Virus record (IMG/VR): IMGVR_UViG_2512047041_000006
Direction: 5' to 3' (one strand)
Source: a virus
Taxonomy: Duplodnaviria; Heunggongvirae; Uroviricota; Caudoviricetes
Length of the DNA stretch: 47,976 nucleotides
The notes beneath the pieces were generated by a model. The model saw nothing but the letters and a program-made list of their open reading frames with translations, was not told the origin of the DNA and did not search any database. Numbering within the stretch: the first letter of the stretch is position 1; each line of letters opens with the position of its first letter. This document shows positions 1,422 to 21,684 of this stretch, one piece after another. The translations under genes were made by a program, and so were the position numbers.

Positions 1422-2876
1422 TTAAAAATCAGCCTGACTTGGGATCAGTTTTTGCCAGATAACTGAAACGTATTTTGCCTGGTAACGGGCGTCATCAAGT
1501 GCATTATGGCGCTCACCTTCGAATGGAATAGCCGTTCTGGCATCGAAGTCTATGGCTTTCCCCAGCTCAACGATTGTGCGTACATCGCGATCGTTGTAGT
1601 AACGCCACGGGCAGGGGATCCCCTGCCGTTCGTATGAACGGCGCAAAATCGTGTTGTCGAAGTTGGCTCCATTTCCCCAAACCTGAACAAAAAATTCACC
1701 GGAGTTTTCGTCGATAAATTCCCGCAATTGTAACAGTGCATCATCTAACGGGATTTCATCGGTCATAATGGCAGATTGCGCTTCGCGTGATTGCTTAAGC
1801 CACCATTTAATGGTGTCCCGATCAATGACTCCGCCAGCAGTTTCCAGATCGATAGTCTTACTAAATTCCGGTCCCATATCTCCGGTTTGCGGATCGAAAA
1901 ATATTGCACCTATTGAGATGATCGGGGCATCAGGATTTTTTCCCATGGTTTCAAGGTCGATCATTAGATGGTCACACGTCCTGCTGGTGGATGTGATTTC
2001 GTGATGACCGTTCACCTTAATTGAGCGATCTGCCGTCTCGCCAGTTTCATTATCGCTATCGTGATGCTGATTGCCGCCAGTGTTCTCCTTGTGTGGATGT
2101 TCAGCGCCTTCCATTTCCTCCGGATCATCTTCCTGAACTTCAACCTGATACTCTTCATCGAATGTTTCCTGGTATGTTGCGTCGCCCATCACCGCGCCAC
2201 AATCAGGGCAGTTGCCGCCGCCGGTCTGACCGCAGGCGGTGCAGACTTTTTCCACTTCCTGTTGCGCCACTGGTTCAGGCTGTTTCGTTTCTGGCTCGTT
2301 TTGTAACGCATTTGGGCTGTTTTGTTCCGCTTTTTGGTAGTTCCGTTCCGATTCATGCTGATTCTGGTTCACAGAATCGCGGGTCTGGATCCCCTTAACC
2401 CATTTCGGATCATTCGGGTCACTAATCCCTTCAACAAATTCACCACGTGATGCAGCAAGCAACTTATCGGCGTCAGGCTGGCTGATATTGGCTGCCTGCA
2501 TAATTTTGTTTACTTCGTCAGCGGTAACTTTTATCGGCTCTGGTTGTTCTGAATCTTCAGCGGTATCTACATTTTGCGGTAAGCCCGTGTATGTGCCATT
2601 TTTTCGGGCAAAATATTCTTCTTTTGTGATTTCAGTGGCGCCAGCAGCCAGTGCCTTATCCAGACCAGAAAGTTTGTTTGCGCGACCGCATTTTTCTCCG
2701 TCCTTATCTGCGAAGAGGAAATAGAACGGCCCCTCACGCTCTACAGATGGTTCAGCTTCCGGCGCGGTTTCATTTTTTGGGATATCAGATACCTCAGTTT
2801 CCACTGCATCAGTTTGTGTTTCTGATGACTGGAGAACATCAACAGTGCCCAGGTCTGTTTCTTCATTCTCAAACAC
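1422..2876 (-). CDS. DEDDh (DnaQ-like) 3'-5' exonuclease domain protein with zinc ribbon
   Basis: 484 aa; C-terminal motifs MIDLETMG / WGNGANFD / [10 protein letters not shown] typical of DEDDh exonucleases; CTACGQ...CPDCG zinc-ribbon-like motif; acidic low-complexity N-terminal half. Confidence 0.7.
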
Positions 2877-3894
2877 GCCCTTTGTCGTCAGGTATTCGCA
2901 GATATATTTTGTTCAGTGCTATGGGATCTTTGTGAATGTCGATCGGACGCTCACGGACAAGGCCAAAAATAGTTTGGCGGTCGTAGCGAAGGGCATCAGG
3001 CTGTTTGCGCATTGATGCCGAGATACGCTTCCAGTCTTCGCGGTCGTTGTCGATAACTTCATTTTTTGCCCAGCGATGGATGCTGCCGTCAATGTTTCCG
3101 GCATCCACATCACCAGGCCAGAGAGCGTAGGCCAGTTCGTCATCCAGTGTTTTCCATGTCTGCTTGTATTCGCGATGAATGGCAGCAATGACCGGGCTGA
3201 TTTTTCCTGTTGAATTTTCACTGTGCTGTTGATTGGTTCTGGCGCGGGCGAGATCAATAACAGACGTGTATTTTCCGGTTTCCTTACGTTCACCTTCGCG
3301 ACGTTTTTTCCAGATGCGCATCTCTGCCTGAATTTCGGGCCATTTGGCACCAGGCTTACATTTATGCTTAACCCACCCGATGGCATGCAGCTTAAGCTCC
3401 GGATACATGGCGTTAACTTCTGGCATTTTCATCAACGCTTCAACGATATGTCCGTCGAATGTTGCCATGTCTTCCTGCAACAATTCCTGTGCGCTAATAA
3501 CCATATCAACGGTGATGTTTTCACATGTGTCGAACTTAACCATGACAGCGTTCTGTACTTCAGGGGCCAGCTTGTCAAAAGTGACGTTCATCGGATCGGA
3601 TTCAGTCTCAACCGGGACAAAGGAAGCAGACTCCTCATCCCAGCGGTTTTCCTGCATATATTCAGCATCCCAGGAATCGAGGGCAGGGCGGGGTATGCCG
3701 GGTTTATCCTCACAGACAATAAATTTATAAGCGCAGTCCTGAGCTGCAGGGAATTGCTCCAGAAATTGCCAATGAAATTTTGCGCGTGCGCGACGCTCAT
3801 CACCAGCTTCAATGGCAGTGGCCACCGCAACAGCGCTATCTTCTTTTATGGCCTGTTCATCAGGAATAGCAGCGCAAATAAAGACCTTACTCAT
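2869..3894 (-). CDS. Hypothetical early-left operon protein
   Basis: 341-aa ORF, translationally coupled (8-nt overlap) to the exonuclease gene; no family recognised. Confidence 0.5.
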
Positions 3895-4546: not shown

Positions 4547-4600
4547 GGGCGGCAGAGCAGTCACGGAGTAAAACTGATACCGCCAAATGTCACCAGAAAA
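4547..4600 (-). ncRNA. dicF: DicF small RNA
   Basis: Minus-strand sequence TTTTCTGGTGACATTTGGCGGTATCAGTTTTACTCCGTGACTGCTCTGCCGCCC followed by T-run; near-identical to the 53-nt DicF of K-12 Qin prophage as recalled; includes its 3' stem-loop. Confidence 0.85.
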
Positions 4601-6523: not shown

Positions 6524-6805
6524 ATGGAAGAATTAAGAATATTTCTCAATTCTCTTTCGTCAGATGAACAGCGTATGTTTGCATGCGAGTGTGGTACCAG
6601 CATCGGTTATCTAAGAAAGGCATTGAGTAAAGGTCAAGTGTTAGGGGCATCGTTATGTGTCCTTATTGAGCGAGCCAGTAATGGTGAAGTTACACGTCAG
6701 CAACTAAGGCCTTTTGATTGGATGAATATTTGGCCCGAGCTGGAAGATACCAAAACGTTAACACAACCACTTTCTAGGAGCTTGATTCATGAAAATCAAG
6801 CATGA
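6524..6805 (+). CDS. Cro-like regulator, YdaS family
   Basis: 93 aa; SD AAGGAG 8 nt upstream; motif CECGTSIGYLRKA...VTRQQLRPFDW resembles Rac YdaS/Cro-like HTH proteins as recalled; divergent from repressor. Confidence 0.6.
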   Translation: MEELRIFLNSLSSDEQRMFACECGTSIGYLRKALSKGQVLGASLCVLIERASNGEVTRQQLRPFDWMNIWPELEDTKTLTQPLSRSLIHENQA

Positions 6806-7214
6806 ACACATCCGCATGGCGATGAATGCCTGGGCGCGTCCTGATGGCGAAAAAGTTCCAGCAGCTGGAATAACCCAGGCTTATTTTGAGTTGGGTATGA
6901 CGTTCCCGGAACTGTATGACGACAGCCATCCGGAAGCCCTGGCTCGCAATACCCAGAAAATTTTCCGCTGGGTAGAGAAAGACACCCCTGATGCTGTTGA
7001 AAAAATGCAGGCTCTGTTACCGGCGATCGAAAAGGCGATGCCGCCTTTGCTGGTGGCCCGTATGCGCAGCCACAGTTCTGAATATTACCGTGAGATCGTC
7101 GAACGGAGGGATCGGCTGGTGAAGGATGTCGATGATTTTGTTGCGTCAGCGGTTGTTTTGTATGACCAGATGAATCGCGGCGGCCCGGCAGGGAATGCTG
7201 TGGTGATGCACTAA
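6789..7214 (+). CDS. YdaT-like protein (CII-position regulator)
   Basis: 141 aa beginning MKIKHEHI as in Rac YdaT (recalled); overlaps upstream gene by 17 nt. Confidence 0.55.
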   Translation: MKIKHEHIRMAMNAWARPDGEKVPAAGITQAYFELGMTFPELYDDSHPEALARNTQKIFRWVEKDTPDAVEKMQALLPAIEKAMPPLLVARMRSHSSEYYREIVERRDRLVKDVDDFVASAVVLYDQMNRGGPAGNAVVMH

Positions 7215-7236
7215 AAGCACGGTGTTCGGGGGTTTT

Positions 7237-8199
7237 ATGAGCAGCAAGCTTCATGGTCTTGTCTGGGAAGGGTGCGCCTTCACCGGCATGATCTTATCCA
7301 GGGTGGCGGTTATGGCCCGTCTTGCAGACTACAGCAATGACGAGGGCGTGTCATGGCCTGCCATTGAAACTATCCGGCGTCAGATCGGTGCAAGAAGTGA
7401 ATCCACAGTGAAATCGGCTATTGCAGAACTGGCGAAAGAGGGCTGGCTGACGAAGGAAGAGCGTAAGGTCGGTGGGCGTAATGTAAGCAATATCTATCGG
7501 CTTAATGTGGAAAAACTCGAAGCAGCTGCGGCGGCGGCGCGTGAGTCATATAAACCGAAAAGAAAAATTAGCCCGGCAAAAAATGACCCGTTAACAGTTG
7601 ACCCGTCAAATATTGACCCCTCAACGGTTGACCCGTCAAATTTTGATGGATCAACTGTTGATAAAAAACTGCCGATTAGGGGGGCGATGATTGACCCCGA
7701 TCCGTCAGTATTAAAACCTGATCCGTCAGATAAAAGATCTTCTTGTCCGGACGCTTCGCAACCGGACCCGCAGACGGCTGAACAGGATTTTTTAACCCGA
7801 CACCCTGACGCGGTTGTGTTCAGTGCGAAAAAACGCCAGTGGGGAAGTCAGGAAGATTTGGTGTGCGCACAGTGGATCTGGGGACGAATCGTGAGTCTTT
7901 ACGAGCAGGCGGCCAGCTATGATGGCGAGATCACTAGACCGAAAGAACCCAACTGGACAGCATGGGCCAATGACGTTCGCACAATGCGGATGCTGGATGG
8001 CAGAACTCACAGACAAATTTGTGAAATGTTTGGGCGTCTCCAGCGGGATTCGTTCTGGGTAAAAAACATCATGAGTCCGGCAAAACTCCGGGAAAAATGG
8101 GATGAACTGGTTATCCGCCTGGGGCGTTCGCCTGCGCAGCGTTGCGTGAATCACATTTCTGAACCGGACACTGAAATACCGCCGGGATTCAGGGGGTGA
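7237..8199 (+). CDS. Replication initiation protein (O-like, N-terminal winged helix)
   Basis: ATG 7237 with GGGGG SD; N-terminal wHTH; internal DP(L/S)xV peptide repeats encoded by 15-bp iterons; immediately followed by DnaC-like loader. Confidence 0.65.
   Translation: MSSKLHGLVWEGCAFTGMILSRVAVMARLADYSNDEGVSWPAIETIRRQIGARSESTVKSAIAELAKEGWLTKEERKVGGRNVSNIYRLNVEKLEAAAAAARESYKPKRKISPAKNDPLTVDPSNIDPSTVDPSNFDGSTVDKKLPIRGAMIDPDPSVLKPDPSDKRSSCPDASQPDPQTAEQDFLTRHPDAVVFSAKKRQWGSQEDLVCAQWIWGRIVSLYEQAASYDGEITRPKEPNWTAWANDVRTMRMLDGRTHRQICEMFGRLQRDSFWVKNIMSPAKLREKWDELVIRLGRSPAQRCVNHISEPDTEIPPGFRG
7583..7662. repeat. Iteron array (candidate replication origin) inside initiator gene
   Basis: Five tandem 15-bp units; core units GTTGACCCGTCAAAT at 7597-7611 and 7627-7641, ATTGACCCCTCAACG at 7612-7626, degenerate units at both ends; each unit is internally palindromic (TTGAC..GTCAA). 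Confidence 0.5.
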
Positions 8200-8205
8200 C
8201 GTGTC

Positions 8206-8952
8206 ATGAAAAACATTGCGGCAGTTGGGGTTCTTGAACGTATTCGCAGACTTGCACCACAGGGGTCGGTTCCACCGTACCGGACGGTGGAGGAGTGGCG
8301 GGAATGGCAACTTGCTGAAGGACGAAAACGCAGCGAGGAGATTAACCGCCAGAATCGCCAGTTGCGGGTGGAAAAAATCCTGAATCGTTCGGGCATCCAG
8401 CCTCTGCACAGCAAATGCTCGTTTGCAAATTATCAGGTGCAGAACGACGGGCAAAAATACGCGCTGAGCCAGGCCAAATCCATAGCTGACGAACTGATGA
8501 CCGGGTGCACGAATTTTGTGTTCAGCGGTAAAACCGGCACCGGGAAAAATCACCTTGCAGCGGCGATGGGCAACCGGCTGATGGTGAAGGGGCGCAGCGT
8601 GATTATCGTCACCGTGTCTGACGTCATGAGCGTGTTGCATGACAGCTACGACAACGGCAAATCCGGGGAAAAATTTTTACAGGAGCTTTGCGGGGTTGAT
8701 TTGCTGGTCCTGGATGAAATAGGCGTTCAGCGGGAGACGAAAAACGAGCAGGTGGTATTGCACCAGATAATTGATCGCCGGACAGCATCACTGTGCAGTG
8801 TCGGGATGTTAACAAACCTGAATCATGCCGCAATGAGTACGCTTCTTGGTGAGAGGATTATGGACCGCATGACCATGAACGGTGGTCGATGGGTGACGTT
8901 TAACTGGGATAGCTGGCGTCCAAATGTCAGCAATATGAGGGTTGTGAAGTAA
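8206..8952 (+). CDS. DnaC-like helicase loader (IstB-type AAA+ ATPase)
   Basis: 248 aa; Walker A GKTGTGKNHLA, Walker B LLVLDEIG; AGGGGG SD upstream. Confidence 0.85.
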   Translation: MKNIAAVGVLERIRRLAPQGSVPPYRTVEEWREWQLAEGRKRSEEINRQNRQLRVEKILNRSGIQPLHSKCSFANYQVQNDGQKYALSQAKSIADELMTGCTNFVFSGKTGTGKNHLAAAMGNRLMVKGRSVIIVTVSDVMSVLHDSYDNGKSGEKFLQELCGVDLLVLDEIGVQRETKNEQVVLHQIIDRRTASLCSVGMLTNLNHAAMSTLLGERIMDRMTMNGGRWVTFNWDSWRPNVSNMRVVK

Positions 8953-8973
8953 TTTTGTCCGGAGGAAATTTTA

Positions 8974-9744
8974 ATGGAAACCGTATCTGACGCACTGAAA
9001 GCACTGAAAAAAGCCTCTTCACATGTGGTGGCAGCTCGCCTTGGAATCAGTCGTGAAGAGGCTGTCAACGAGCTGTGGGAACTCAAAAGAAAAGGCGTCG
9101 TTGATAAAACTGGTCACACCTGGTTTCTGGCTGGCGAAGGTGAATCCCGGGTAACCGAAGAGCGGCCAGTAAAATCTGAAGCACAGGATATGCTGACCGG
9201 GGAGGTCGAACAAAAAGTTACCGCAGACATGATGATTGAGTTTATCGGTCAGGATGGGGCTAAAACGTGTGAGGAACTGGCGGGTAAGTTCGGTGTCAGT
9301 ACTCGCAAGGTTGCTTCCACGCTGGCGGTGGTAACCGCAACGGGGCGGCTGGCACGCGTTAATCAGAACGGTAAATTTCGTTACTGCATGCCGGGCGATA
9401 ATTTACCAGCAGAGCCGAAAGCCGCGCTGGTAACGGAAAGTGATGGTAAGGCCTTTCCTCAGCCAGCAGGTGCTGCGTTACCAGTCCGGGAAGCCGCAAC
9501 ACAGGAAGAAATTAAAACAGAAACTGTGGCGGACATTGTGCAGCCGTTGCCATCGTTTACCGAAACGCAAGCAGATGAGCTGATTTTTCCGTCCCTTCGC
9601 AGGGCAAACCTGGCGCTGCGCAGGGCGAAAAGTGATGTTCAGAAGTGGGAGCGAGTCTGCGCCGCGCTGCGGGAGCTGAACAAGCACCGGGATATTGTTC
9701 GACAGATTACTGATTCTTCCCGCCGTGTTGTATCGGAAAAGTGA
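8974..9744 (+). CDS. Hypothetical protein with two wHTH-like segments
   Basis: 256-aa ORF following dnaC-like gene; no family recognised. Confidence 0.5.
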   Translation: METVSDALKALKKASSHVVAARLGISREEAVNELWELKRKGVVDKTGHTWFLAGEGESRVTEERPVKSEAQDMLTGEVEQKVTADMMIEFIGQDGAKTCEELAGKFGVSTRKVASTLAVVTATGRLARVNQNGKFRYCMPGDNLPAEPKAALVTESDGKAFPQPAGAALPVREAATQEEIKTETVADIVQPLPSFTETQADELIFPSLRRANLALRRAKSDVQKWERVCAALRELNKHRDIVRQITDSSRRVVSEK

Positions 9745-9759
9745 TTGCCGGAGGCGCTT

Positions 9760-10185
9760 ATGGCAAAAGTATTTACACAAGAAGAGCGGGAAAAAATTAA
9801 AGGGCAGGTTGTTGAACTTGTACGTCTGAGCGGTCGCGAGACGTTGCGGCAACTGGAAGCCAGGACAGGTGCGACAAGATATCTGATGAGTGTTCTCGCC
9901 AGAGAGCTGGTTGCCAGTGGCGATGTATACAACTCTGGTTACGGGTTATTCCCGTCTGAACAGGCGCGTAAGGACTGGCAAAATGCTCGCAAAAAACTCT
10001 CAAGGGCAAAGGTGAAGAAACCTGCAGTGGTTGATCCGGACCTTATCTGGTCGTTACCAGACGGCGAAATACGCCGCTACGACAGGCGCCTGAATATAAT
10101 CTGTCGCGAGTGCCGGAAGAGCGAAGCTATGCAGCGTGTACTGGCATTTTATCAAGGAAATGTTAGGTATTTTAGACGTTACTAG
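9760..10185 (+). CDS. Hypothetical protein
   Basis: ATG 9760 preceded by GGAGG; 141 aa; ORF track begins at 9745. Confidence 0.45.
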   Translation: MAKVFTQEEREKIKGQVVELVRLSGRETLRQLEARTGATRYLMSVLARELVASGDVYNSGYGLFPSEQARKDWQNARKKLSRAKVKKPAVVDPDLIWSLPDGEIRRYDRRLNIICRECRKSEAMQRVLAFYQGNVRYFRRY

Positions 10186-10338
10186 ATTAAAGAGCATTAG
10201 TTCAGATGTGAATTGACATTTTCATGGCGCAGGGTAGAGCCAGCGTGGTTGTCCGCTTTGCGTCAAAACCAGATATTACCAGATTTAGACATATATTCCC
10301 GATAGACCTGCTCTGATGCTACACTCTGTGCTATTTTC

Positions 10339-11025
10339 ATGACCCCAATAAAAATATTTATGACTATTGCTGATTTCAAACGGCCTAAATTGGAGCTCCC
10401 AAACGGGGCAAACAAACTACTACTGCACTCTTGCTGTGCTCCATGTTCCGGTGAAGTGATGGAGGCGCTTCAGGCCTCGGGAATCGACTACACCATCTTT
10501 TTCTACAACCCGAACATTCATCCTCAGAAAGAGTATTTAATTCGTAAGGATGAAAATATTCGCTTTGCTGAACAACACGGCGTGCCGTTTATCGATGCTG
10601 ATTACGACACCGACAACTGGTTTGAACGTGCCAAAGGAATGGAATGGGAGCCTGAGAGGGGGATCCGTTGTACCATGTGTTTTGACATGCGTTTTGAGCG
10701 GACAGCGTTGTACGCTGCTGAAAATGGTTTCAGTGTGATCAGCAGTTCACTGGGCATTTCACGCTGGAAAAATATGCAGCAGGTTAACGAGTGTGGGCGG
10801 CGAGCTGTTGCGCATTATCCGGGTATGGTGTACTGGGATTATAACTGGCGCAAGCAGGGCGGCTCGTCCCGTATGATTGAAATCAGCAAGCGCGAAAAAT
10901 TCTATCAGCAGGAATATTGTGGCTGTGTGTATTCTCTGCGCGATACCAATCTACACCGCAAATCTCAGGGACGCCCTCTTATCAAAATTGGCCAACTCCA
11001 CTACGGAAAAGAAGAGAAGGAGTGA
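10339..11025 (+). CDS. queH: Epoxyqueuosine reductase QueH-like (DUF208)
   Basis: 228 aa with the DUF208/QueH cysteine motifs [11 protein letters not shown] and EYCGC; alternative start at 10360; no obvious SD at either start. Confidence 0.72.
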
Positions 11026-11262
11026 TTTTATGGATCACCTTTCTGATTGATTTCATATTGGCGAGGTGACGTGAGTTAAGTAGAATGGCTGCGGGTGCTT
11101 GAGGCTATCTGTCTCAGGCATGAACACTGAAAGGCAGATAGAGAAAAGCCCCAGTTAACATTTCGCGTCCTGCAAGACGCTTAACATTAATCTGAGGCCC
11201 AATCTATGTCTCACAAATGTAGGTTAGCCTCTTACGTGCCGAAAGGCAAGGGGAAGCAGGCT

Positions 11263-11418
11263 ATGAAGCAGCAAAAGGCGATGTTAATCGCCCTGATCGT
11301 CATCTGTTTAACCGTCATAGTGACGGCACTGGTAACGAGGAAAGACCTCTGCGAGGTACGACTCCGAACCGGCCAGACGGAGGTCGCTGTCTTCACAGCT
11401 TACGAACCTGAGGAGTAA
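11263..11418 (+). CDS. hok: Hok/Gef family type I toxin
   Basis: 51-aa product MKQQKAMLIALIVICLTVIVTALVTRKDLCEVR.RTGQTEVAVFTAYEPEE, near-identical to HokD/RelF as recalled; in-frame upstream extension from 11206 may be a mok-like leader ORF. Confidence 0.85.
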   Translation: MKQQKAMLIALIVICLTVIVTALVTRKDLCEVRLRTGQTEVAVFTAYEPEE

Positions 11419-11486
11419 GAGACCTGGCGGGGGAGAAATCCCTCGCCACCTCTGATGTGTCAGGCATCCTCAACGCACCCGCACTT

Positions 11487-11514
11487 AACCCGCTTCGGCG
11501 GGTTTTGTTTTTTC
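11487..11514 (+). terminator. Rho-independent terminator after hok
   Basis: AACCCGCTTCGGCGGGTT stem-loop followed by TTTGTTTTTT. Confidence 0.6.
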
Positions 11515-11584
11515 TGGCATTCTGGTTTACAATTCGCACGTCAGCCTGAACACCTGACACCTGCTGCGCCAGCAGAGAAAACAG

Positions 11585-11857
11585 ATGGCGCACAAAACCA
11601 AATTTCACAATTCTGATACCGACCTTGCCATCCGGCATGGGCGGCGTTCACACGCATTTAAAACCGACTGGTACCAACACCCACCATGTACTGAAGAACA
11701 GGCCGAATGGCTAATTCATAACTACCGCAGACGCGGATACGAGATTAAGAAAGCCCTCAGCCTCGATTATCGTCACTGGATAATCTCCGTCAGGCTTCCT
11801 TACTCTGAACGCCCACCGCGTCCGTCCCGCACATTCCAGCAACGCATCTGGAGGTAA
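11585..11857 (+). CDS. Hypothetical protein
   Basis: 90-aa ORF upstream of and abutting DUF968 gene. Confidence 0.4.
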   Translation: MAHKTKFHNSDTDLAIRHGRRSHAFKTDWYQHPPCTEEQAEWLIHNYRRRGYEIKKALSLDYRHWIISVRLPYSERPPRPSRTFQQRIWR

Positions 11858-11858
11858 C

Positions 11859-12914
11859 GTGCGGGTATTACTTCGACCTGTTCTGGTACCGGAACTCGGG
11901 CTGGTGATCGTTAAGCCGGGCCGTGAATCCATGCCGGTATTCCACAATACCCGGGTACTGGTGGAGCCGGAACCGAAAAGCATGCGTAATCTGCCGTCCG
12001 GGGTCGTTCCTGCCGTTCGCCAGCCGCTGGCGGAGGATAAATCATTACTGCCATTTTTCAGCGACGAACGAGTGATTCGTGCTGCTGGTGGCGCTGGCGC
12101 ATTGTCTGACTGGTTACTGCGCCATGTTAAATCCTGCCAGTGGCCACACGGCGATTATCACCACAGTGAAACCGTCATTCACCGTTATGGTACCGGCGCA
12201 ATGGTGTTGTGCTGGCACTGCGACAACCAGCTGCGCGACCAGACCTCCGAATCACTCGGGCAACTTGCTCACCAAAACCTGTCTGCATGGATGATTGACG
12301 TCATACGCCATGCAATGAATGGCTCGCAGGAGCGGGAATTATCGCTGGCTGAATTATCCTGGTGGGCGGTCCGCAATCAGGTGGCGGACGCGCTACCGGA
12401 AGCGGTATTACGTCGTTCGCTGGGGTTGCGTGCGGAAAAAATCCGCTCAATGTACCGTGAAAGCGACATCGTACCGGGAGAGCAGACCGCCACCAGCATA
12501 CTGAAGCAGCGCACAAAAAATCTTGCGCCGCTGCCTCACGCCCACCAGCAAAACCCGCCACAGGAAAAGACGGTGGTCAGCATTGCCGTTGATCCGGAGT
12601 CACCGGCTCAGTATCTCCAGCGCCAGAAATCACAACGGGAAGAGATGCCTGTATACACGCGTTGGGTAAAAACGCAGAAATGCATGACGTGTGGCAATCA
12701 GGCAGATGATCCGCATCACATCATTGGTCATGGACTGGGAGGGATGGGAACAAAGGCTGATGATTTGTTTGTTATTCCGCTGTGCCGTAAATGCCATAGC
12801 GAACTACACGCCGGGGTAAAAGATTTTGAAGAAAAACACGGCAGCCAGCTGTTGTTGCTGATTCGTTTTTTAATGCACGCGAGAAATTCGGGTGTTCTGA
12901 AGTGGAAAGCATAA
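11859..12914 (+). CDS. DUF968-like protein with C-terminal HNH-like Cys/His motif (YdfU-like)
   Basis: 351 aa; C-terminal CMTCGN...HHIIGHG...CRKCHSELH motif; position in nin-like region upstream of rusA. Confidence 0.55.
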   Translation: MRVLLRPVLVPELGLVIVKPGRESMPVFHNTRVLVEPEPKSMRNLPSGVVPAVRQPLAEDKSLLPFFSDERVIRAAGGAGALSDWLLRHVKSCQWPHGDYHHSETVIHRYGTGAMVLCWHCDNQLRDQTSESLGQLAHQNLSAWMIDVIRHAMNGSQERELSLAELSWWAVRNQVADALPEAVLRRSLGLRAEKIRSMYRESDIVPGEQTATSILKQRTKNLAPLPHAHQQNPPQEKTVVSIAVDPESPAQYLQRQKSQREEMPVYTRWVKTQKCMTCGNQADDPHHIIGHGLGGMGTKADDLFVIPLCRKCHSELHAGVKDFEEKHGSQLLLLIRFLMHARNSGVLKWKA

Positions 12915-13280
12915 ATGACTGAACGCATAGAATTTGTTTTGCCTTACCCGCCAACGGTGAACACTTACTGGCGACGTCGTGGCAGCACATATTTTGTATC
13001 AAAAGTCGGTGAGCGTTATCGCCGTGATGTGGCGCTTATTGTTCGCCAGCAGCAACTGAAATTAAACCTGTCCGGAAGGCCGGCAATAGAAATTATTGCA
13101 GAGCCACCGGATAAGCGCCGTCGTGACCTGGACAATATCCTGAAGGCACCACTGGATGTACTGACGCATGCGGGGCTGCTCATAGACGACGAGCAGTTTG
13201 ATGAAATTAATATTGTGCGCGGTCAGCTTGTTCCTGGTGGGCGGTTGGGGATAAAAATCACAGAACTGGAGTACGCATGA
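12915..13280 (+). CDS. rusA: Holliday junction resolvase RusA
   Basis: 121 aa; characteristic RusA sequence (YPPTVNTYW...RRDLDNILKAPLDVLTHAGL..DDEQ). Confidence 0.85.
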   Translation: MTERIEFVLPYPPTVNTYWRRRGSTYFVSKVGERYRRDVALIVRQQQLKLNLSGRPAIEIIAEPPDKRRRDLDNILKAPLDVLTHAGLLIDDEQFDEINIVRGQLVPGGRLGIKITELEYA

Positions 13281-13966
13281 ATAACCAGTATTTACAGTTT
13301 GTTCGTGAGCAACTCATGATTGCCACCGCCGATTTGAGTGGATCAACAAAAGGGCAGCTTGAGGCCTGGCAGGAGAATGCCATGTTTGATACAGGGCGTT
13401 ACAGGCGTAAAAAAATCCGGTACCGCGATGAAGTGACTGGAAAAATGATAACGCGGGATAATCCACCAATCCCGGGAAAGCAATCGCTGGCGAAGGGGGT
13501 GTCAATTCCTCTCGTCAGTCCGGTTGAGTTTTCGACATCATCGTGGCGGCGGGCTGTTCTGTCTCTTGAAGAACATCATAAAGCCTGGTTGTTGTGGTGT
13601 TACAGCGGGAGTATTTGTTGGGAATATCAGATCGCGATAACGCAGTGGGTGTGGAATGAATTTAAAACCCGGTACGGCACCAGAAAAATTGCAGGGAAAA
13701 CGCAGGAGCGCGTGAAGAAGTTGATCTGGCTGGCGGCACAGGATGTCAGAGGATGGATTACCGGGTGTGAGGTCTACCAGAGACAGGAGCTTGCCAGACT
13801 GTGTGGAGTTAAGCCTGATAACTGGAGCCATAATTATGCGAACTACTGGCGTGAGATGTGCGATATTTTTAAGAGTCTCGATAGAGAATCTGTGATTTGC
13901 ACCGTGAAAATAAGAGCGCAACAAAAAGCGACTTTTTCACGACGAGATATTGCAAAAGTCAATTAA
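13277..13966 (+). CDS. Late-gene antitermination protein Q-like
   Basis: 229-aa ORF directly after rusA and directly before a strong bidirectional terminator hairpin (tR'-like); assignment mainly positional. Confidence 0.55.
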   Translation: MNNQYLQFVREQLMIATADLSGSTKGQLEAWQENAMFDTGRYRRKKIRYRDEVTGKMITRDNPPIPGKQSLAKGVSIPLVSPVEFSTSSWRRAVLSLEEHHKAWLLWCYSGSICWEYQIAITQWVWNEFKTRYGTRKIAGKTQERVKKLIWLAAQDVRGWITGCEVYQRQELARLCGVKPDNWSHNYANYWREMCDIFKSLDRESVICTVKIRAQQKATFSRRDIAKVN

Positions 13967-14027
13967 ATAGCGTACGTTTCGTATAAATCTGATATTTTGC
14001 CGATTTTGTACGCGATGGCAAAGTAAG

Positions 14028-14057
14028 AAAAAAAACTGCCGTCAGGCGGTTTTTTTT
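14028..14057 (+). terminator. tR'-like intrinsic terminator downstream of Q
   Basis: A8-CTGCC-GTCA-GGCGG-T8 hairpin flanked by A and T tracts (bidirectional). Confidence 0.65.
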
Positions 14058-14179
14058 ATGCCCAAAATCGCGTCAGTACAGTAAACACGCTGGTGGTTGC
14101 GAATACGGGTCTTTCAGCTTGCTGGCTTTTTCGACAAGAGTTATTGGTATGTCACGTTAACCGGAAAAAGGAAAAAGAC

Positions 14180-14377
14180 ATGCTAAAACAGCAGGATATG
14201 ACAGAAACCGCCAGAGTGGTGTTTAATGAATTAAGCGTTACCGAACCGGCGACAGTCGGGGAGATAGCGCAGAATACTTACCTTTCACGCGAACGCTGCC
14301 AGTTAATACTGACCCAGCTGGTTATGGCGGGTCTGGCAGACTATCAGTTCGGTTGTTACAGACGCCTTCAGTCCTGA
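14180..14377 (+). CDS. Small winged-helix DNA-binding protein
   Basis: 65-aa product from ATG 14180; ORF track extends it to 14093 from a GTG. Confidence 0.45.
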   Translation: MLKQQDMTETARVVFNELSVTEPATVGEIAQNTYLSRERCQLILTQLVMAGLADYQFGCYRRLQS

Positions 14378-14387
14378 AGGCTTTTTT
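14364..14387 (+). terminator. Rho-independent terminator
   Basis: GCCTTCA-GTCC-TGAAGGC hairpin followed by TTTTTT; overlaps stop of wHTH gene. Confidence 0.55.
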
Positions 14388-14403
14388 ATTTGTGGTAAAT
14401 GGG

Positions 14404-14434
14404 CGGCTGGTGGGTGTTAGGGGCACCCACCAGC
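14404..14434. promoter_or_regulatory. Perfect 12-bp-arm inverted repeat (candidate operator) upstream of methyltransferase
   Basis: GGCTGGTGGGTG-N7-CACCCACCAGCC; each arm carries the Chi octamer GCTGGTGG, one per strand. Confidence 0.4.
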
Positions 14435-14527
14435 CATCTGCTCATGCGTTGGGTTCACAAGCAAACCTCAGGCCCACTGCTTTGCGCAAAAGCAGAATGA
14501 GCCTATCAGAGACAGGCTTAATGATCC

Positions 14528-15577
14528 ATGCTTAATACTGTAAAAATATCCAGTTGTGAGTTAATCAACGCCGACTGCCTGGAATTTATCCGGTCGTTAC
14601 CCGAAAATTCTGTTGACCTGATAGTCACGGACCCGCCGTACTTTAAAGTGAAGCCTGAGGGCTGGGATAACCAGTGGAAGGGCGACGATGATTACCTGAA
14701 GTGGCTGGACCAGTGTCTGGCGCAGTTCTGGCGGGTGCTGAAACCTGTCGGAAGTCTTTACCTGTTCTGTGGTCATCGCCTGGCATCTGATATCGAAATC
14801 ATGATGCGTGAACGCTTCAGTGTGCTGAACCATATTATCTGGGCGAAGCCGTCCGGACGCTGGAACGGATGCAACAAGGAAAGCCTGCGGGCGTATTTCC
14901 CCGCCACAGAGCGCATTCTGTTCGCGGAACATTATCAGGGGCCGTATCGTCCGAAAGATGCCGGGTATGCGGCGAAGGGCAGTGCACTGAAACAGCATGT
15001 GATGGCCCCGCTGATTTCTTACTTTCGTGATGCGCGCGCTGCCCTGGGGATAACGGCAAAACAGATTGCAGATGCCACAGGAAAGAAAAACATGGTGTCG
15101 CACTGGTTCAGTGCCAGTCAGTGGCAGCTACCGAACGAAAGCGATTATCTGAAATTACAGTCGCTGTTTGCCCGGGTGGCAGAAGAGAAACATCAGCGCG
15201 GTGAACTGGAAAAGCCCCACCACCAGCTGGTGGATACGTATACGTCACTGAACCGGCAGTATGTGGAGCTGCAGAGTGAATATAAGCATCTGCGGCGGTA
15301 TTTTGGTGTGACGGCGCAGGTGCCGTACACGGATGTGTGGACACATAAACCGGTGCAGTTCTATCCCGGGAAACATCCGTGCGAAAAACCGGCAGAAATG
15401 CTGCAGCAGATAATCAGCGCAAGCAGTCGTCCGGGTGACCTGGTTGCAGATTTTTTTATGGGCTCAGGTTCAACGGTAAAAGCGGCACTGGCGCTTGGGC
15501 GTCGTGCGATTGGCGTTGAACTGGAGACCGGACGTTTTGAGCAGACAGTCAGGGAAGTTCAGGATTTAATCGTTTGA
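14528..15577 (+). CDS. DNA methyltransferase, N6-adenine/N4-cytosine (beta-class), orphan
   Basis: 349 aa; catalytic DPPY motif near N-terminus (LIVTDPPYF) and AdoMet motif FFMGSGST near C-terminus; no adjacent restriction endonuclease gene. Confidence 0.85.
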   Translation: MLNTVKISSCELINADCLEFIRSLPENSVDLIVTDPPYFKVKPEGWDNQWKGDDDYLKWLDQCLAQFWRVLKPVGSLYLFCGHRLASDIEIMMRERFSVLNHIIWAKPSGRWNGCNKESLRAYFPATERILFAEHYQGPYRPKDAGYAAKGSALKQHVMAPLISYFRDARAALGITAKQIADATGKKNMVSHWFSASQWQLPNESDYLKLQSLFARVAEEKHQRGELEKPHHQLVDTYTSLNRQYVELQSEYKHLRRYFGVTAQVPYTDVWTHKPVQFYPGKHPCEKPAEMLQQIISASSRPGDLVADFFMGSGSTVKAALALGRRAIGVELETGRFEQTVREVQDLIV

Positions 15578-15626
15578 AACGGATGAGATTGCAGAATTAA
15601 TTACGCACCATTATTATTCTGCTCCC

Positions 15627-15702
15627 GGCCCTTTAGCTCAGTGGTGAGAGCGAGCGACTCATAATCGCCAGGTCGCTGGTTCAAATCCAGCAAGGGCCAC
15701 CA
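15627..15702 (+). tRNA. ileZ: tRNA-Ile2 (anticodon CAT, lysidine type; ileX/ileZ-like)
   Basis: 76 nt with encoded CCA; full cloverleaf fits; near-identical to E. coli ileX as recalled. Confidence 0.85.
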
Positions 15703-15709
15703 TCACATA

Positions 15710-15786
15710 CCGCCATTAGCTCATCAGGAAAGAGCGCCAGCTTTCGAAGCTGGTTGCGCGGAGTTCGGGTCCCCGAAGGCGGTCCA
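15710..15786 (+). tRNA. tRNA-Arg-like (anticodon TCG), atypical
   Basis: 77 nt cloverleaf with encoded CCA, anticodon loop TTTCGAA; one acceptor-stem and one T-stem mismatch, T-loop TTCGGGT, discriminator T - possibly degenerate. Confidence 0.5.
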
Positions 15787-15799
15787 TTATCTGTATCCT

Positions 15800-15876
15800 G
15801 CGTTGTTAGCTCAGCCGGACAGAGCAATTGCCTTCTAAGCAATCGGTCACTGGTTCGAATCCAGTACAACGCGCCA
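15800..15876 (+). tRNA. tRNA-Arg (anticodon TCT, argU-like)
   Basis: 77 nt; canonical cloverleaf, T-loop TTCGAAT, anticodon loop CTTCTAA, encoded CCA. Confidence 0.85.
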
Positions 15877-15891
15877 CACTTATTTTCCCTG

Positions 15892-15914
15892 GCTCGCTTT
15901 TGCGGGCTTTTTTT
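15892..15914 (+). terminator. Rho-independent terminator after tRNA cluster
   Basis: GCTCGC-TTTT-GCGGGC hairpin followed by T7. Confidence 0.5.
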
Positions 15915-15920
15915 AAATGT

Positions 15921-16133
15921 CTCACAATTCAGGCGGTTGACTGTTGTCTGGTTTGCGGGGAGTTTGTTAAAAGAAACTGGCATGGTGAATCCCCCTGTGC
16001 GGAGGGGCAATCAGCGAGTAGGTATATGGGATAATCGCGGATTCAGGTGCTGGTACTGAATTCACCGGGAGGCACCCGGCACCATGCAATGGCACATAGC
16101 GCCACTCTCCAGCCCCTCTCCGGAGGGGCTTTT
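15921..16133 (+). repeat. Noncoding repeat module, copy A
   Basis: Shares ordered conserved blocks with copy B: CTCACAATTCAG, GTTGAC, TTGTTAAAA, GCATGGTGAATCCCCCTG-GCGGAGGGGC, TCACCGGGAGGCACCCGGCACCATG, AGCCCCTCTCCGGAGGGGCTTT. Confidence 0.6.
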
Positions 16134-16388
16134 CTGTGCCGGATACATCACAGTTTCTGGAACCTTAGGTACTACAGTATCAGTCAGGGTGCTATATTTT
16201 CAGATGTGATGAAAGCCTGTCAGCAGGCAGGGCGTATCGGAAATGACCCAGTAGAGAAAACGTTGACTCAGATACCGGTGCTGAGTTACCGGGAAACCGG
16301 CATCACATGACCGCTATCCTTCCAGGCCCATCCGCTCCGGTGGGCCTTTTTACTGCAGAAAACAGGTTCCCCGTTAAATGCTATGTTG

Positions 16389-16620
16389 CTCACAATTCAG
16401 TAAGTTGACAGTTGCCTGTCAGACTGGGCATTTGTTAAAAAAATTTCGCATGGTGAATCCCCCTGAGCGGAGGGGCGACTGGTGACGGTATAATCTCTGA
16501 TTATCAAAACGAGAATGACGCGGGTTTAGTGGCACCGGGCTGAACTCACCGGGAGGCACCCGGCACCATGTGCATGATGATACAGATACGCGGCTTTAGC
16601 CCCTCTCCGGAGGGGCTTTC
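16389..16620 (+). repeat. Noncoding repeat module, copy B
   Basis: Second copy 468 bp downstream of copy A; contains a perfect TATAAT (in GGTATAATCTCT) and the same three GC-rich hairpins. Confidence 0.6.
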
Positions 16621-16850
16621 TTATGGACAAAAAAAGCCCGCGCTGGGAGACGCGGGCGGCAAGGAATAAACAATAAAACGTGAAGTAATATTTCAGCTGG
16701 CGAATAATACCCCATAGTAATCACTCTGCGCAACTGCGCGGTCTTTTTCGAATTGCGGGCTGTAGTCTCCCTTCTGCCATTGTCCTGTAACTTCCGGACT
16801 TCAGCCTGCTCCTTATCTGACTCACAACATTATCCCGCCCGGGAGGATTC

Positions 16851-18704
16851 ATGGCATTTAAACACTATGACGTGGTCAGGGCGGCATCGCCGTCAGACCT
16901 TGCGAAACGACTGACACAAAAACTGAAGGAGGGCTGGCAGCCGTTTGGTAGTCCGGTGGCCATAACCCCTTATACCCTGATGCAGGCGATTGCAGCAGAA
17001 GGTGATGTGGTCGTCAGTGGTGCAACTGAGCCGGAGTGGTACTACGTCATCGTACTGGCCGGGCAATCCAATGCCATGGCTTACGGTGAAGGGCTTCCGC
17101 TTCCGGATTCATACGATGCGCCCCATCCGCGCATTAAGCAACTGGCCCGTCGTAACACAGTGACTCCCGGTGGTGAAGTATGCGTATTTAACGACATCAT
17201 TCCTGCTGACCATTGTCTGCATGATGTTCAGGATATGAGTACGATTAACCATCCCCGGGCTGACCTGAGCAAAGGGCAGTACGGCTGTGTCGGACAGGGC
17301 TTACATATTGCCAAAAAACTGCTTCCGTATATCCCTAATAATGCGGGGATCCTGCTGGTACCATGCTGTCGTGGTGGTTCGGCATTCACCCAGGGCACGG
17401 AGGGGACATTCAGCGAGTCCACGGGAGCCAGTCAGGATTCGGCTCGCTGGGGAGTGGGTAAGCCGTTATATCAGGATCTGCTTTTCCGCACGAAGGCAGC
17501 ATTGCAGAAAAACCCGAAAAACGTTTTGCTGGCGATATGCTGGATGCAGGGGGAATTCGATATGACGAATGCCAGTTACGCCCAGCAGCCAGCAGCATTT
17601 CTTGCAATGGTACAGCAGTTCCGTGCTGACCTTGCCGGGCTGGCGGCGCAGTGTCACGGTGGAAGTCCGGCATCAGTCCCCTGGATTTGTGGCGACACGA
17701 CATACGCGTGGAAACAAGAACACGGTACGCAATATGAAGTGGTATATGGTGCATATAAAGGTAAAGAATCCCAGCAGATTTATTTTGTTCCCTTTATGAC
17801 CGATGGTAGCGGAGTTAATACACCGACAAACAACCCGTCAGAAGATCCTGATATTGCCGGGTCTGGTTATTACGGTTCGGCATCCCGAACGAACAAAAAC
17901 TGGGTATCATCAAATCGCCCGACGCATTTCAGCTCATGGGCGCGTCGTGGCATTATTCCCGATCGTATGGCAACTGCTATTCTGAACGTAGCCGGTCGCA
18001 CCTTAGCCTTCATTAGTGGTAAGGCACCGGAAATCAAAGCCTCGCCCGGCGGCGACACGCCATCGGGGCCGTCTGAAGATGCATCCATACGCACAATCTC
18101 CCTGTTGCCGACAGCCGGAGACGCTGCTGCGCAGGGCTGGAGCATTAAGAATGGCGGAATTCAGTTGTCAGATGGTGTATTTAAGATCACCAAGCAGAGC
18201 AATAAAGCCTGGTCCCTGACGCGCCCGGTGGATGACGCAGTCTCCCTGCTGACACGGGGTGGCAGACTGAGCTGTAAGTTTCGACTGTCAGGCGCACTGA
18301 CCAACAACCAGTTCGGTCTGGGAATTTATCTGTATACCGATGTAGCGTTACCTGACGTCGTGGCGATGACCGGGACTGGTAACCCGTTCCTGATGTCGTT
18401 CTTCACCCAGACCACAGACGGCAAACTGAATCTGATGCATCACAAGAAAGCAGGAAACACAAAGTTGGGCGAGTTCGGGAATTACAGTAACGACTGGCAG
18501 ACGCTGGAGCTGGTGTTCACCGCCGGCAGTGCCACGGTTACTCCGAAACTGAATGGAGTGGCTGGCCCGGCATTCCAGGTCATAAAAGACAGTCTGACAC
18601 TGGGGCTGAATGCGCTGACGCTGACGGATATTACCAAAAATGCAGCGTATGGCGTTGAGATAGAAAGTCTGGTGCTGGAGATAAATGCACCGGCATCATC
18701 ATAA
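16851..18704 (+). CDS. NanS-p-like sialate O-acetylesterase (DUF1737 + SGNH/SASA esterase)
   Basis: 617 aa; SGNH motif VLAGQSNAMAYGEG; N-terminal DUF1737-like segment; position between tRNA cluster and holin as in Stx-phage late regions. Confidence 0.72.
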   Translation: MAFKHYDVVRAASPSDLAKRLTQKLKEGWQPFGSPVAITPYTLMQAIAAEGDVVVSGATEPEWYYVIVLAGQSNAMAYGEGLPLPDSYDAPHPRIKQLARRNTVTPGGEVCVFNDIIPADHCLHDVQDMSTINHPRADLSKGQYGCVGQGLHIAKKLLPYIPNNAGILLVPCCRGGSAFTQGTEGTFSESTGASQDSARWGVGKPLYQDLLFRTKAALQKNPKNVLLAICWMQGEFDMTNASYAQQPAAFLAMVQQFRADLAGLAAQCHGGSPASVPWICGDTTYAWKQEHGTQYEVVYGAYKGKESQQIYFVPFMTDGSGVNTPTNNPSEDPDIAGSGYYGSASRTNKNWVSSNRPTHFSSWARRGIIPDRMATAILNVAGRTLAFISGKAPEIKASPGGDTPSGPSEDASIRTISLLPTAGDAAAQGWSIKNGGIQLSDGVFKITKQSNKAWSLTRPVDDAVSLLTRGGRLSCKFRLSGALTNNQFGLGIYLYTDVALPDVVAMTGTGNPFLMSFFTQTTDGKLNLMHHKKAGNTKLGEFGNYSNDWQTLELVFTAGSATVTPKLNGVAGPAFQVIKDSLTLGLNALTLTDITKNAAYGVEIESLVLEINAPASS

Positions 18705-18789
18705 AAAGTGAGCCAGCCAAATGGAAGGTATCGTTAAACTCACCGGTAGTGTCAGTGGGTCGTCTGAGATGCCTGCATGAGTTATCAGA

Positions 18790-18819
18790 GCCATCAGTAC
18801 TTAACTGGTGGCTTTTTTT
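18790..18819 (+). terminator. Terminator hairpin immediately upstream of holin gene
   Basis: GCCATCAGT-ACTTA-ACTGGTGGC stem-loop followed by TTTTTTT. Confidence 0.5.
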
Positions 18820-18854
18820 ATTGTTGTCAGCTTCCGGATAACGGGAGACGGGGT

Positions 18855-19070
18855 ATGTACCAGATGGAAAAAATCACAACAGGTGTGTCATACACCACGT
18901 CAGCGGTGGGAACGGGCTACTGGTTCCTGCAGTTGCTGGACAGGGTTTCCCCGTCTCAGTGGGCGGCAATAGGCGTGCTGGGGAGTCTGCTGTTTGGGCT
19001 GCTGACATATCTGACTAACCTGTATTTCAAAATCAGAGAGGACCGTCGTAAGGCTGCACGGGGAGAGTAA
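18855..19070 (+). CDS. S: Holin, pinholin class (S21-like), dual-start motif
   Basis: 71 aa beginning MYQMEK (two Met starts); two TM segments; C-terminus [22 protein letters not shown] matches phage 21 S as recalled; GGAG SD. Confidence 0.8.
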
Positions 19071-19074
19071 TTCA

Positions 19075-19419
19075 ATGACTCAAAACTATGAACTGATTGT
19101 GAAAGGGATCCGCAATTTTGAGAATAAAGTTACGGTAACTTTAGCGTTACGGGACAAAAAACGCTTTGACGGTGAAATTTTTGACCTGGACATCTCGCTG
19201 GACCGTGTTGAAGGTGCCGCGCTGGAGTTTTATGAGGCAGCAGCCAGAAGGAGCATCAGACAGGTCTTCCTGGATGTTGCTGCCGGGTTATGTGAAGGGG
19301 ATGAGCAGTCGCCGGAAAAGCGCCCCGTAATTTTAGAGGCGCAGGATGTGTTGATAACCTACAGAGGAAAACTACCGGGAATAATTACGGGTTCTCTGAA
19401 GAGTCCGCCGAAATGGTAA
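19075..19419 (+). CDS. Hypothetical protein between holin and endolysin
   Basis: 114-aa ORF, GGGGAG SD; protein-like composition. Confidence 0.45.
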   Translation: MTQNYELIVKGIRNFENKVTVTLALRDKKRFDGEIFDLDISLDRVEGAALEFYEAAARRSIRQVFLDVAAGLCEGDEQSPEKRPVILEAQDVLITYRGKLPGIITGSLKSPPKW

Positions 19420-19657
19420 TTTTACCAGCATATTTTTCATCCAGTAATACAGCAAGCCGCCTGAAAGAGTCTTGTTGTTCCTGAGACCATTTGGGATTGC
19501 ATGATTCAAACTGGATTGATGCCAGCGTTGATTGCATCTGTTCCCTTGGAATTGAGAATGCCAGATATGAGAAGGCGACGGTAAGGGTATTCACGTCTTC
19601 CCGAAGCCTGGAAATGCTGTCGAGCAACTCCTGTAGAGAAATGGTGTTATTGTCCAT
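19385..19657 (-). CDS. Hypothetical protein, antisense orientation within lysis cassette
   Basis: 90-aa ORF with GAGGA SD 8 nt upstream of ATG; convergent with 19075-19419 and overlapping it by 35 nt. Confidence 0.4.
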   Translation of the reverse strand: MDNNTISLQELLDSISRLREDVNTLTVAFSYLAFSIPREQMQSTLASIQFESCNPKWSQEQQDSFRRLAVLLDEKYAGKITISADSSENP

Positions 19658-19762
19658 AAATAATCCTCATGATTGTATTGACCTGTTAGCAGCCTGAGGC
19701 AACAGGCTGGAACTGATAAACATATCCAGGGCTCAGAAACCGATAAATCCTGATAAATATCC

Positions 19763-20296
19763 ATGAACGCAAAAATCAGATACGGCCTGTCGGCTGCCGT
19801 TCTGGCGCTGATTGCCGCTGGTGCGCCTGCGCCTGACATTCTCGACCAGTTTCTGGATGAAAAGGAAGGTAACCACACCACGGCATACCGTGATGGTGCG
19901 GGTATCTGGACCATCTGCCGCGGTGCCATCCTGGTGGATGGCAAACCTGTCGTTCCGGGCATGAAGTTGTCGAAGGAAAAATGCGACCGGGTTAACGCCA
20001 TTGAGCGTGATAAGGCGCTGGCATGGGTGGAGAAAAACATCAGAGTGCCATTGAGTGAACCCCAGAAAGCGGGGATCGCGTCATTCTGTCCGTACAACAT
20101 TGGTCCCGGTAAGTGTTTCCCGTCGACGTTTTATAAACGAATTAATGCAGGTGATCGCAGGGGAGCGTGTGAGGCGATTCGCTGGTGGATTAAGGACGGT
20201 GGCAGAGACTGCCGTATTCGTTCAAACAACTGCTACGGTCAGGTATCCCGTCGTGACCAGGAGAGCGCGCTGGCGTGCTGGGGAATCGACAGATAA
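19763..20296 (+). CDS. R: SAR endolysin (GH24 phage lysozyme, R21-like)
   Basis: 177 aa; weakly hydrophobic Gly/Ala-rich N-terminal signal-anchor-release segment; catalytic E-x8-D-x5-T triad (DEKEGNHTTAYRDGAGIWT). Confidence 0.85.
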   Translation: MNAKIRYGLSAAVLALIAAGAPAPDILDQFLDEKEGNHTTAYRDGAGIWTICRGAILVDGKPVVPGMKLSKEKCDRVNAIERDKALAWVEKNIRVPLSEPQKAGIASFCPYNIGPGKCFPSTFYKRINAGDRRGACEAIRWWIKDGGRDCRIRSNNCYGQVSRRDQESALACWGIDR

Positions 20297-20386
20297 GCAG
20301 AATATTTTGCTGAAAAATAAGGTATGGCCACGCGGGCGGATAACACGAAATCCTGCGAACTGGCGAAACGTAAGTGAATAAAAGTA

Positions 20387-20424
20387 AAAACCCCGTTTGT
20401 TGGCACCAAGCGGGGTTTTGTGTT
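20387..20424 (+). terminator. Candidate terminator between R and Rz
   Basis: AAAACCCCG...CGGGGTTTT hairpin followed by GTGTTT. Confidence 0.45.
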
Positions 20425-20494
20425 TCCTGACTCCGGAAAAGTCAAAGGAGAAAGTGTGTTTGATTTTAGCAAACTGATTCGGGAGATTCGAGTG

Positions 20495-20593
20495 ATGGCT
20501 GAAAAATTATCCACCTGGAAGTTCATTCTTATCTGGCTGGTGTTTGTGATTATGGCCTCCGGTTATTTCATCGGTCAGATACGCTGGTGGTGA
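20495..20593 (+). CDS. Small hydrophobic peptide (32 aa) upstream of Rz
   Basis: ATG 20495 with GGGAG SD; MAEKLSTWKFILIWLVFVIMASGYFIGQIRWW; stop 2 nt before Rz start. Confidence 0.3.
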   Translation: MAEKLSTWKFILIWLVFVIMASGYFIGQIRWW

Positions 20594-20594
20594 A

Positions 20595-21061: not shown

Positions 21062-21411
21062 GTTTTGTTGATGCGCCGTATCGTCGCTGTATTCCCTCAT
21101 TAACAGAGACCGCAGCCCGACAGGGAGACTCCTCTGCGCGAGTGTGAGGGGATAATCAAAAACGATACACACCGGGGTTTACCGCGTTAACGGAGCGCGG
21201 CGTTGTCCCCTCATAGTCGCCTGTCCGGTGCGATGGTGGAAGAAACCGGATGTTTATCACTATTAATTGATGACACAGAAATGGATTCATTGAATTTCAG
21301 CACGTTTTTGTATTCGTGTTATTGAACATCTGTTTATTTTACTTTTAACATATTGATAATAAAAAGAGCTGTAAATCTTTAGATGAGTCGATTTTGTCCG
21401 GGGAAGTTCAA

Positions 21412-21552: not shown

Positions 21553-21684
21553 GTTATATTAATTATAACAAATAATTTTCTGTGTTATTTTTTCAGGCTA
21601 TCCCGTCAGAGGGGAAGCCTGTACTGCCGGGGAGCGAATGGAAAACTGATGTGTCCGGTAACTGCGTGTTCTGTGAACACCATG

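Follow-up and report, generated by a model that had tools for sequence, protein, structure and literature searches.

The window, by which we mean the whole stretch of 47,976 nucleotides that was analysed, is a lambda-like prophage bearing an intact gene for QueH, and the reading that we favour, with a probability of about 0.8, is that this queH is functional, was captured as a cassette and acts in lysogenic conversion by completing queuosine (Q) independently of B12. The tRNAs for Asn, Asp, His and Tyr are the substrates of QueH, an iron-sulfur, cobalamin-independent enzyme that reduces their oQ34 (epoxyqueuosine) to Q34, the final step of queuosine formation. The identity of the gene is already known: the RefSeq title of the exact protein, found on at least 1000 contigs, is [quoted passage not shown], and the QueH family is biochemically and structurally characterised.

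At the level of the family, the window ORF is a QueH. The preliminary description, made from the sequence alone, had recognised the gene by its CCAPCS and EYCGC cysteine motifs and proposed a profile search as the check. Both motifs are present in the intact ORF 10339..11025 of the plus strand (228 aa, the first motif reading HSCCAPCS), and the profile search agrees, as do the residues and the structural match: Pfam PF02677 (QueH) is hit over profile positions 1–174 of 175 with 221.5 bits for a cutoff of 23.5 (E=1.1e-65). A family alignment (35 diverse members, T. maritima QueH included) shows the window protein to have the consensus residue at every invariant column. The 16–18 family-invariant residues are all kept, including the cysteines of the CCxxC, CxxC and CGC motifs (C32, C33, C36, C111, C114, C194 and C196 in the 228-aa numbering) as well as N59, E65, Y66, R69, E106, R110, K144, Q191 and S199. 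We take the conserved residues to be ligands of the [4Fe-4S] cluster or of the extra iron, as reportedly assigned by Li et al. 2021. The AlphaFold2 model derived from the 35-member alignment (mean pLDDT 95.7, pTM 0.91) finds with Foldseek the T. maritima QueH structures 9d86, 7lc5 and 7lc7 as best matches (E=4e-14, TM(target) 0.92, rmsd 1.3 Å over 179 columns), the next-ranked folds, TtuA-type PP-loop enzymes and others, being far lower (TM <0.55). The nearest PDB sequences are likewise those of T. maritima QueH (7lc5, 7lc7, 9deu, 9dco and 9d86, E about 1e-21, with 8e-22 for 7lc5). An NCBIfam profile search of the protein gave no match and is uninformative.

The window protein thus resembles T. 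maritima QueH (7lc5/7lc7/9deu) in its full-length domain, its invariant Cys, Asn, Glu, Arg, Lys and Gln residues and its fold, but the identity with the crystallised protein is only about 30–33%. The first motif also differs, CCAPC in the window and CCAPD in T. maritima, whose Asp13 is the residue altered in the deposited D13N mutant; a Cys at this position is the family rule, since it is invariant in a second family alignment. Another difference lies at the C-terminus. A basic tail of about 25 residues extends beyond the Pfam domain (window 10963–11022, residues ~202–221 of 221); it is conserved in the enterobacterial QueH clade, absent from T. maritima QueH and mostly modelled at high confidence, and may be an extension that serves to bind tRNA.

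In PHROGs, the protein falls in phrog_3217, labelled “unknown function”. The profile of this group begins at residue 41 of the 228-aa ORF (MEALQASG..., window 10459 onward): an internal Met was probably taken as the start of its members, which thereby lost the CCAPC motif, and this may be the reason for the label.

The limits of the gene had to be revised. Its start had been placed at 10186, which is the base right after the DUF977 stop codon, and 10186–10338 is intergenic. Across seven aligned phage alleles the ATG at 10360 is invariant, whereas at 10339 the Rac-type alleles read ATT instead of ATG, with an in-frame TAA after it; 10360 is for this reason most likely the real start, and the alignment would make the seven upstream codons part of the leader (Table 1). 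The 221-aa product is identical to RefSeq WP_000150294.1, and PGAP calls the same start at the 100%-identical APEC O18 locus.

Table 1. Position of queH and of the elements that border it in the window.
Feature	Coordinates	Strand	Evidence and remarks
DUF977 gene, last of the replication module (left boundary)	9745..10185	+	PF06163, E=9e-28
Intergenic stretch from DUF977 to the queH cassette	10186..10316	+	Differs between prophage lineages; GC 42–43%
Extended −10-like element TGcTACACT, candidate	10317..10325	+	Allele conservation; putative
Upstream in-frame ATG extension, 7 codons	10339..10359	+	Allele alignment; probably 5' UTR
queH CDS	10360..11025	+	221 aa plus stop; PF02677, invariant residues, AF2 model, PGAP CDS, dN/dS
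hok/sok type I toxin-antitoxin locus (right boundary)	11093..11418	+	Rfam RF01794, PF01848

Upstream of the gene, the block CTCTGATGCTACAC (10313–10326) is invariant in the seven phage alleles, including those whose homology begins only from about 10311. It holds the candidate element TGcTACACT, 35 nt 5' of the start 10360; Rac-type alleles read TACACA instead of TACACT. At the aligned position, chromosomal homologues that are 90% identical have TGCTACAAT or TGCTAAAAT, which suggests that queH brought its native promoter along when it was captured. A strict scan for the sigma-70 −35/−10 consensus around queH reported no promoter, and no terminator flanks the gene; we also found no −35 element and no recognisable Shine-Dalgarno sequence before 10360. 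These two absences, together with the TACACA of the Rac type, render the gene's own expression in the lysogen uncertain. As no terminator follows queH, it may be read through within the early rightward operon. The preliminary description had given the gene an AT-rich upstream region of its own: the AT bias is in fact weak (for a GC of ~50–55% in the replication genes, see Table 1), but the conserved extended −10-like element, common with chromosomal queH, lends the idea some substance.

The window starts with the integrase gene (1–1131, minus strand) and continues with an exonuclease, the DicF sRNA, YdaS/YdaT-like genes, an O-like HTH protein, a DnaC/IstB-like ATPase, DUF1627, DUF977, queH, hok/sok, DUF968/HNH, RusA, Q, a DNA methyltransferase, three tRNAs, two STnc100, a SASA esterase, lysis genes and an IS3-family element, before the lambda-type terminase, portal, capsid and tail genes, Lom and the tail fibre. 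From 6777 to 22000 it is 99.6% identical to the APEC O18 prophage located beside ompW. The DicF antisense sRNA (4547–4598, minus strand, RF00039, 77 bits), in the leftward early region, marks the Qin/DicB type. It had been claimed that queH sits between the DnaC-like module and hok. The right side of this claim is borne out, with sok (RF01794, 120.5 bits, 11093–11268) and Hok/Gef (PF01848, E=1.6e-22, 11206–11418), but the left one is not, since DUF1627 and DUF977 separate queH from the DnaC-like gene (8206–8952), an IstB-like ATPase. The wider statement that queH is cargo between the replication and nin-like regions describes the locus well: it is an accessory gene lying between the replication module and the hok/DUF968/RusA/Q region.

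Of 5426 complete E. coli genomes, 1031 contain queH DNA, among them O157:H7, O104:H4, O111:H11 and APEC strains and E. coli C. The identity is at least 99% in 705 of them; in 983 of the 1031 carriers the copy covers at least 80% of the query, and the full-length copies are, among the matches listed, all annotated “epoxyqueuosine reductase QueH”. The slot was compared at the loci that keep the replication module, a region that two loci do not have (L013, with IS100 upstream, and L004, cut by the contig end). The gene has the same orientation and comes directly after DUF977 in the window, in three other prophage loci (L001, L003 and L005) and in phage HannyBb, all of the Qin/DicB type; at the Rac-type locus L012 it also follows DUF977, with one small reverse-strand ORF in between. 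The downstream neighbours vary: hok/sok in the window, Kiwa in E. coli DA33137, a DUF1971 gene in the Rac type. Variable presence among otherwise related prophages (in the 1031 carriers of 5426 genomes) at a fixed slot (after DUF977) is a trait of morons. Like the morons of lambda, e.g. lom and bor, queH is a small accessory gene, variably present, in a cargo slot and with a promoter-like element; unlike lambdoid morons, it has no terminator that we could find on its 3' side.

In DA33137 (locus L005, 7049–8688) a complete Kiwa system, with KwaA at E=1e-101 and KwaB at E=3e-159, lies directly 3' of queH, which makes the interval between the replication and hok/nin-like regions a hotspot for cargo and defence.

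The alleles are homologous from about 10311 in the Rac type, or about 10244 in E. coli C and HannyBb, up to the stop codon. From this extent, the mobile unit is a cassette of about 715 bp, 10311–11025. A tblastn search of the phage collection returned 25 records, of which Escherichia phage HannyBb alone is convincing as a complete phage, its copy of queH being labelled hypothetical; the remainder consists of unannotated short contigs of faecal origin and of very large “phage” records, possibly bacterial DNA.

The QueH family is large (4774 clusters at 50% identity for E<=1e-3), and the closest relatives of the window protein are chromosomal. Its 90% cluster also contains QueH of Enterobacter ludwigii, E. 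cloacae, E. asburiae and Klebsiella variicola; adjoining clusters, about 90% identical, contain those of K. oxytoca, Citrobacter koseri and E. albertii, and neighbouring clusters come also from K. aerogenes, Kosakonia, Pectobacterium and Cronobacter. A species-level genome scan gives 92% identity for Scandinavium, 91% for Kluyvera and 88–90% for Enterobacter, and the flanks of these queH copies contain none of the phage early genes of the window. Two copies with 90% identity sit amid LysR, acetyltransferase, CsbD and EAL genes, which are not of phage type, and copies with 84–86% identity occupy housekeeping loci, adjoining a PurL-type FGAR amidotransferase gene in Erwinia and near a TmcA-type tRNA acetyltransferase gene in Providencia. 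Chromosomal QueHs of Enterobacter, Klebsiella, Citrobacter koseri, Kluyvera and Scandinavium thus share with the window protein 88–92% of their amino acids, its length and the extended −10-like element of its gene; the difference is one of place, amid ordinary genes for the former, inside a lambdoid prophage for the latter. As its nearest kin are chromosomal and found in such non-phage or housekeeping contexts, the phage gene is an ordinary enterobacterial queH transferred to a phage. The capture cannot be dated, because synonymous sites are saturated relative to the Erwinia and Providencia genes.

The clade shows 75–81% identity between Enterobacterales and Sphingomonas, Pseudomonas, Stenotrophomonas and Neisseriaceae, which is unusually high for an enzyme of 220 aa and suggests either an extreme constraint or repeated horizontal transfer. 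One QueH match labelled Bacillus subtilis is probably a contamination.

Pairwise Nei-Gojobori comparisons of five distinct prophage alleles give dN/dS of 0.044–0.094 for dS up to 0.46, values indicating strong purifying selection on queH, exerted while the gene was phage-borne. The ORF is moreover intact in damaged prophages: in that of E. coli C, where tail genes are truncated and an IS3 element is present, in that of strain 2012C-4221, where IS100 replaced the immunity and replication region, and in the window itself, despite an IS3-family insertion and an exonuclease split over two frames. The retention of queH in defective prophages points to a benefit for the host cell, and not for lytic growth only.

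What this benefit might be has to be considered in the light of QueG, which carries out the same reaction, oQ-tRNA to Q-tRNA, with an unrelated fold and cofactor set. The initial statement that E. coli normally uses QueG is confirmed by the presence of queG in 5425 of the 5426 complete genomes, and every E. coli with queH has both genes. Since queG is nearly universal, the prophage queH would be a second, cobalamin-independent route. E. coli does not synthesise cobalamin de novo. To our knowledge, no fitness benefit of Q over oQ has been demonstrated. Deletion of queG left growth unchanged in one setting (PMC11841063). The oQ-tRNA substrate is made in E. coli K-12 by Tgt and QueA (PMC9508795), and the QueG step is said to need cobalamin in a passage of PMC4646009 that cites Frey et al. 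1988. A precedent for the coexistence of both enzymes exists in S. aureus, in which QueG and QueH are redundant enzymes with different cofactors (PMC13443448, 2026).

We thus propose the following scheme. A queH cassette, in which a short leader links an extended −10-type promoter to the CDS, would have been captured from an Enterobacteriaceae chromosome and would now stand where the replication module meets the hok/nin-like region in lambdoid prophages of the Qin/DicB and Rac types. From there, QueH would convert oQ34 to Q34 in tRNA-Asn, -Asp, -His and -Tyr of the lysogen. This lysogenic conversion would offer a B12-independent second route keeping Q-tRNA fully matured when corrinoids are scarce, a role suggested by the fact that the hosts have a cobalamin-dependent QueG and cannot make cobalamin. 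The analysis establishes that the protein belongs to the QueH family, with its catalytic residues intact and its fold, and that the gene is distributed as described, under purifying selection and redundant with queG; we infer that the enzyme is active in E. coli, that the promoter is used, that the gene is expressed in lysogens and that it has a B12-sparing benefit. More tentatively, and with real reservations, we suggest that a host-selected queH uncouples the final Q-tRNA step from the cobalamin supply in about one E. coli strain out of five, O157:H7, O104:H4, O111 and APEC among them; if true, temperate phages would reshape the epitranscriptome of their host, and the Q/oQ status would depend on the strain in B12-poor niches.

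Another function for queH would be to serve the lytic cycle: transcribed early and rightward after induction, it would tune Q-tRNA for the translation of phage genes. This agrees with the place of queH within the early operon, in the same orientation and with no terminator separating it from the replication genes, and with the presence of tRNA genes in the same prophage. The preliminary description had indeed linked queH to three tRNA genes, supposing that the phage tunes the decoding of its host. These genes exist, at 15627–15876, with the anticodons CAU, UCG and UCU, the CAU one being named tRNA-Ile by PGAP, i.e. lysidine-modified. Queuosine is made only in tRNAs with a GUN anticodon (Asn, Asp, His and Tyr), so that none of the three is a Q substrate, and we rejected the link between queH and the phage tRNAs. 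The codons do not favour tuning either: NAU represents 0.56 of the NAY codons in early genes and 0.57 in late genes, close to the average of the E. coli genome, and with no visible NAU/NAC bias in phage genes we also rejected a tuning of codon usage. Besides, queH is intact and under strong purifying selection in prophages that are unable to complete a lytic cycle, and has retained the promoter-like element of its chromosomal kin. A primarily lytic role is on the whole unlikely.

The slot itself might suggest that queH is conflict cargo, for defence or counter-defence, the oQ or Q state of GUN tRNAs altering the sensitivity to an anticodon nuclease such as colicin E5 or to a tRNA-targeting immunity. 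The hotspot character of the slot, with hok/sok in the window and the complete Kiwa of DA33137, is in line with this, and colicin E5 does target Q-containing tRNAs (PMC12409363). But QueH has no PADLOC match at E<=0.001, it is about 90% identical to housekeeping QueH without any extra domain, and no partner gene is kept beside queH across contexts. We further know of no indication that oQ rather than Q changes the susceptibility to nucleases. A role in conflict therefore appears very improbable.

Hardly any credit is left for queH as a neutral hitchhiker or decaying remnant, which the host QueG could suggest by making the function look redundant, for neutrality is excluded by a dN/dS of ~0.05 over dS up to 0.46 and by the near full length of 983 of the 1031 copies. 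The same holds for an action on 7-deazaguanine-modified phage DNA: phages do use 7-deazaguanine chemistry on DNA (PMC6884629), but QueA, QueG and QueH were absent from the DNA-modifying viruses analysed by Hutinet et al. 2019 (PMC6884629), the early and large late ORFs scanned here belong to ordinary lambdoid Pfam families of replication, recombination, lysis and structure or to none, and the Pfam scan of 30 window ORFs (the 1266-aa ORF 39348–43148 being among those left out) found no homologue of DpdA/TGT, FolE or QueC/D/E, which makes this role unlikely.

Returning to queH as a probable lysogenic-conversion gene, the searchable literature contained nothing relevant on QueH/DUF208 in a phage or prophage, nothing on WP_000150294.1 and no experiment on the queH allele of the window. 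Its carriage by prophages and possible B12-sparing role are under-described, yet unsurprising and of modest interest. Should the enzyme encoded by the prophage be active, some 19% of the sequenced E. coli would have two oQ reductases with different cofactor needs and, when cobalamin is limiting, would not have the Q-tRNA status of K-12, in which the Q pathway was elucidated. In that case a temperate phage would also offer a clear example of carriage of a tRNA-anticodon modification enzyme, to be set against the absence noted in the 2019 survey (PMC6884629). A small practical consequence is that studies of queG or of Q in E. coli other than K-12 should check for a prophage queH.

Some other features of the window prophage can be mentioned. 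The IS3-family element (22001–23302) separates the small terminase gene from the lysis genes, has orfA/orfB on the minus strand and bears an ALIL frameshift pseudoknot (RF01497, 120 bits). As it is absent from the otherwise 99.6–99.7% identical APEC O18 prophage, the insertion is recent; it may cripple the expression of the late genes. The exonuclease gene (1422–3894, minus strand) is in two reading frames, with a switch near 2878–2909, while its APEC O18 homologue is a single ORF of 823 aa; a frameshift that made it a pseudogene, or else a sequencing error, is the probable cause of the split. Finally, the late-regulatory region (15627–16628 and 16851–18704) resembles that of Shiga-toxin phages, without stx genes, in the order of Q, the DNA methyltransferase, the tRNAs (CAU, UCG and UCU), the tandem STnc100 (165 and 136 bits) and the SASA esterase, which is NanS-p-like.
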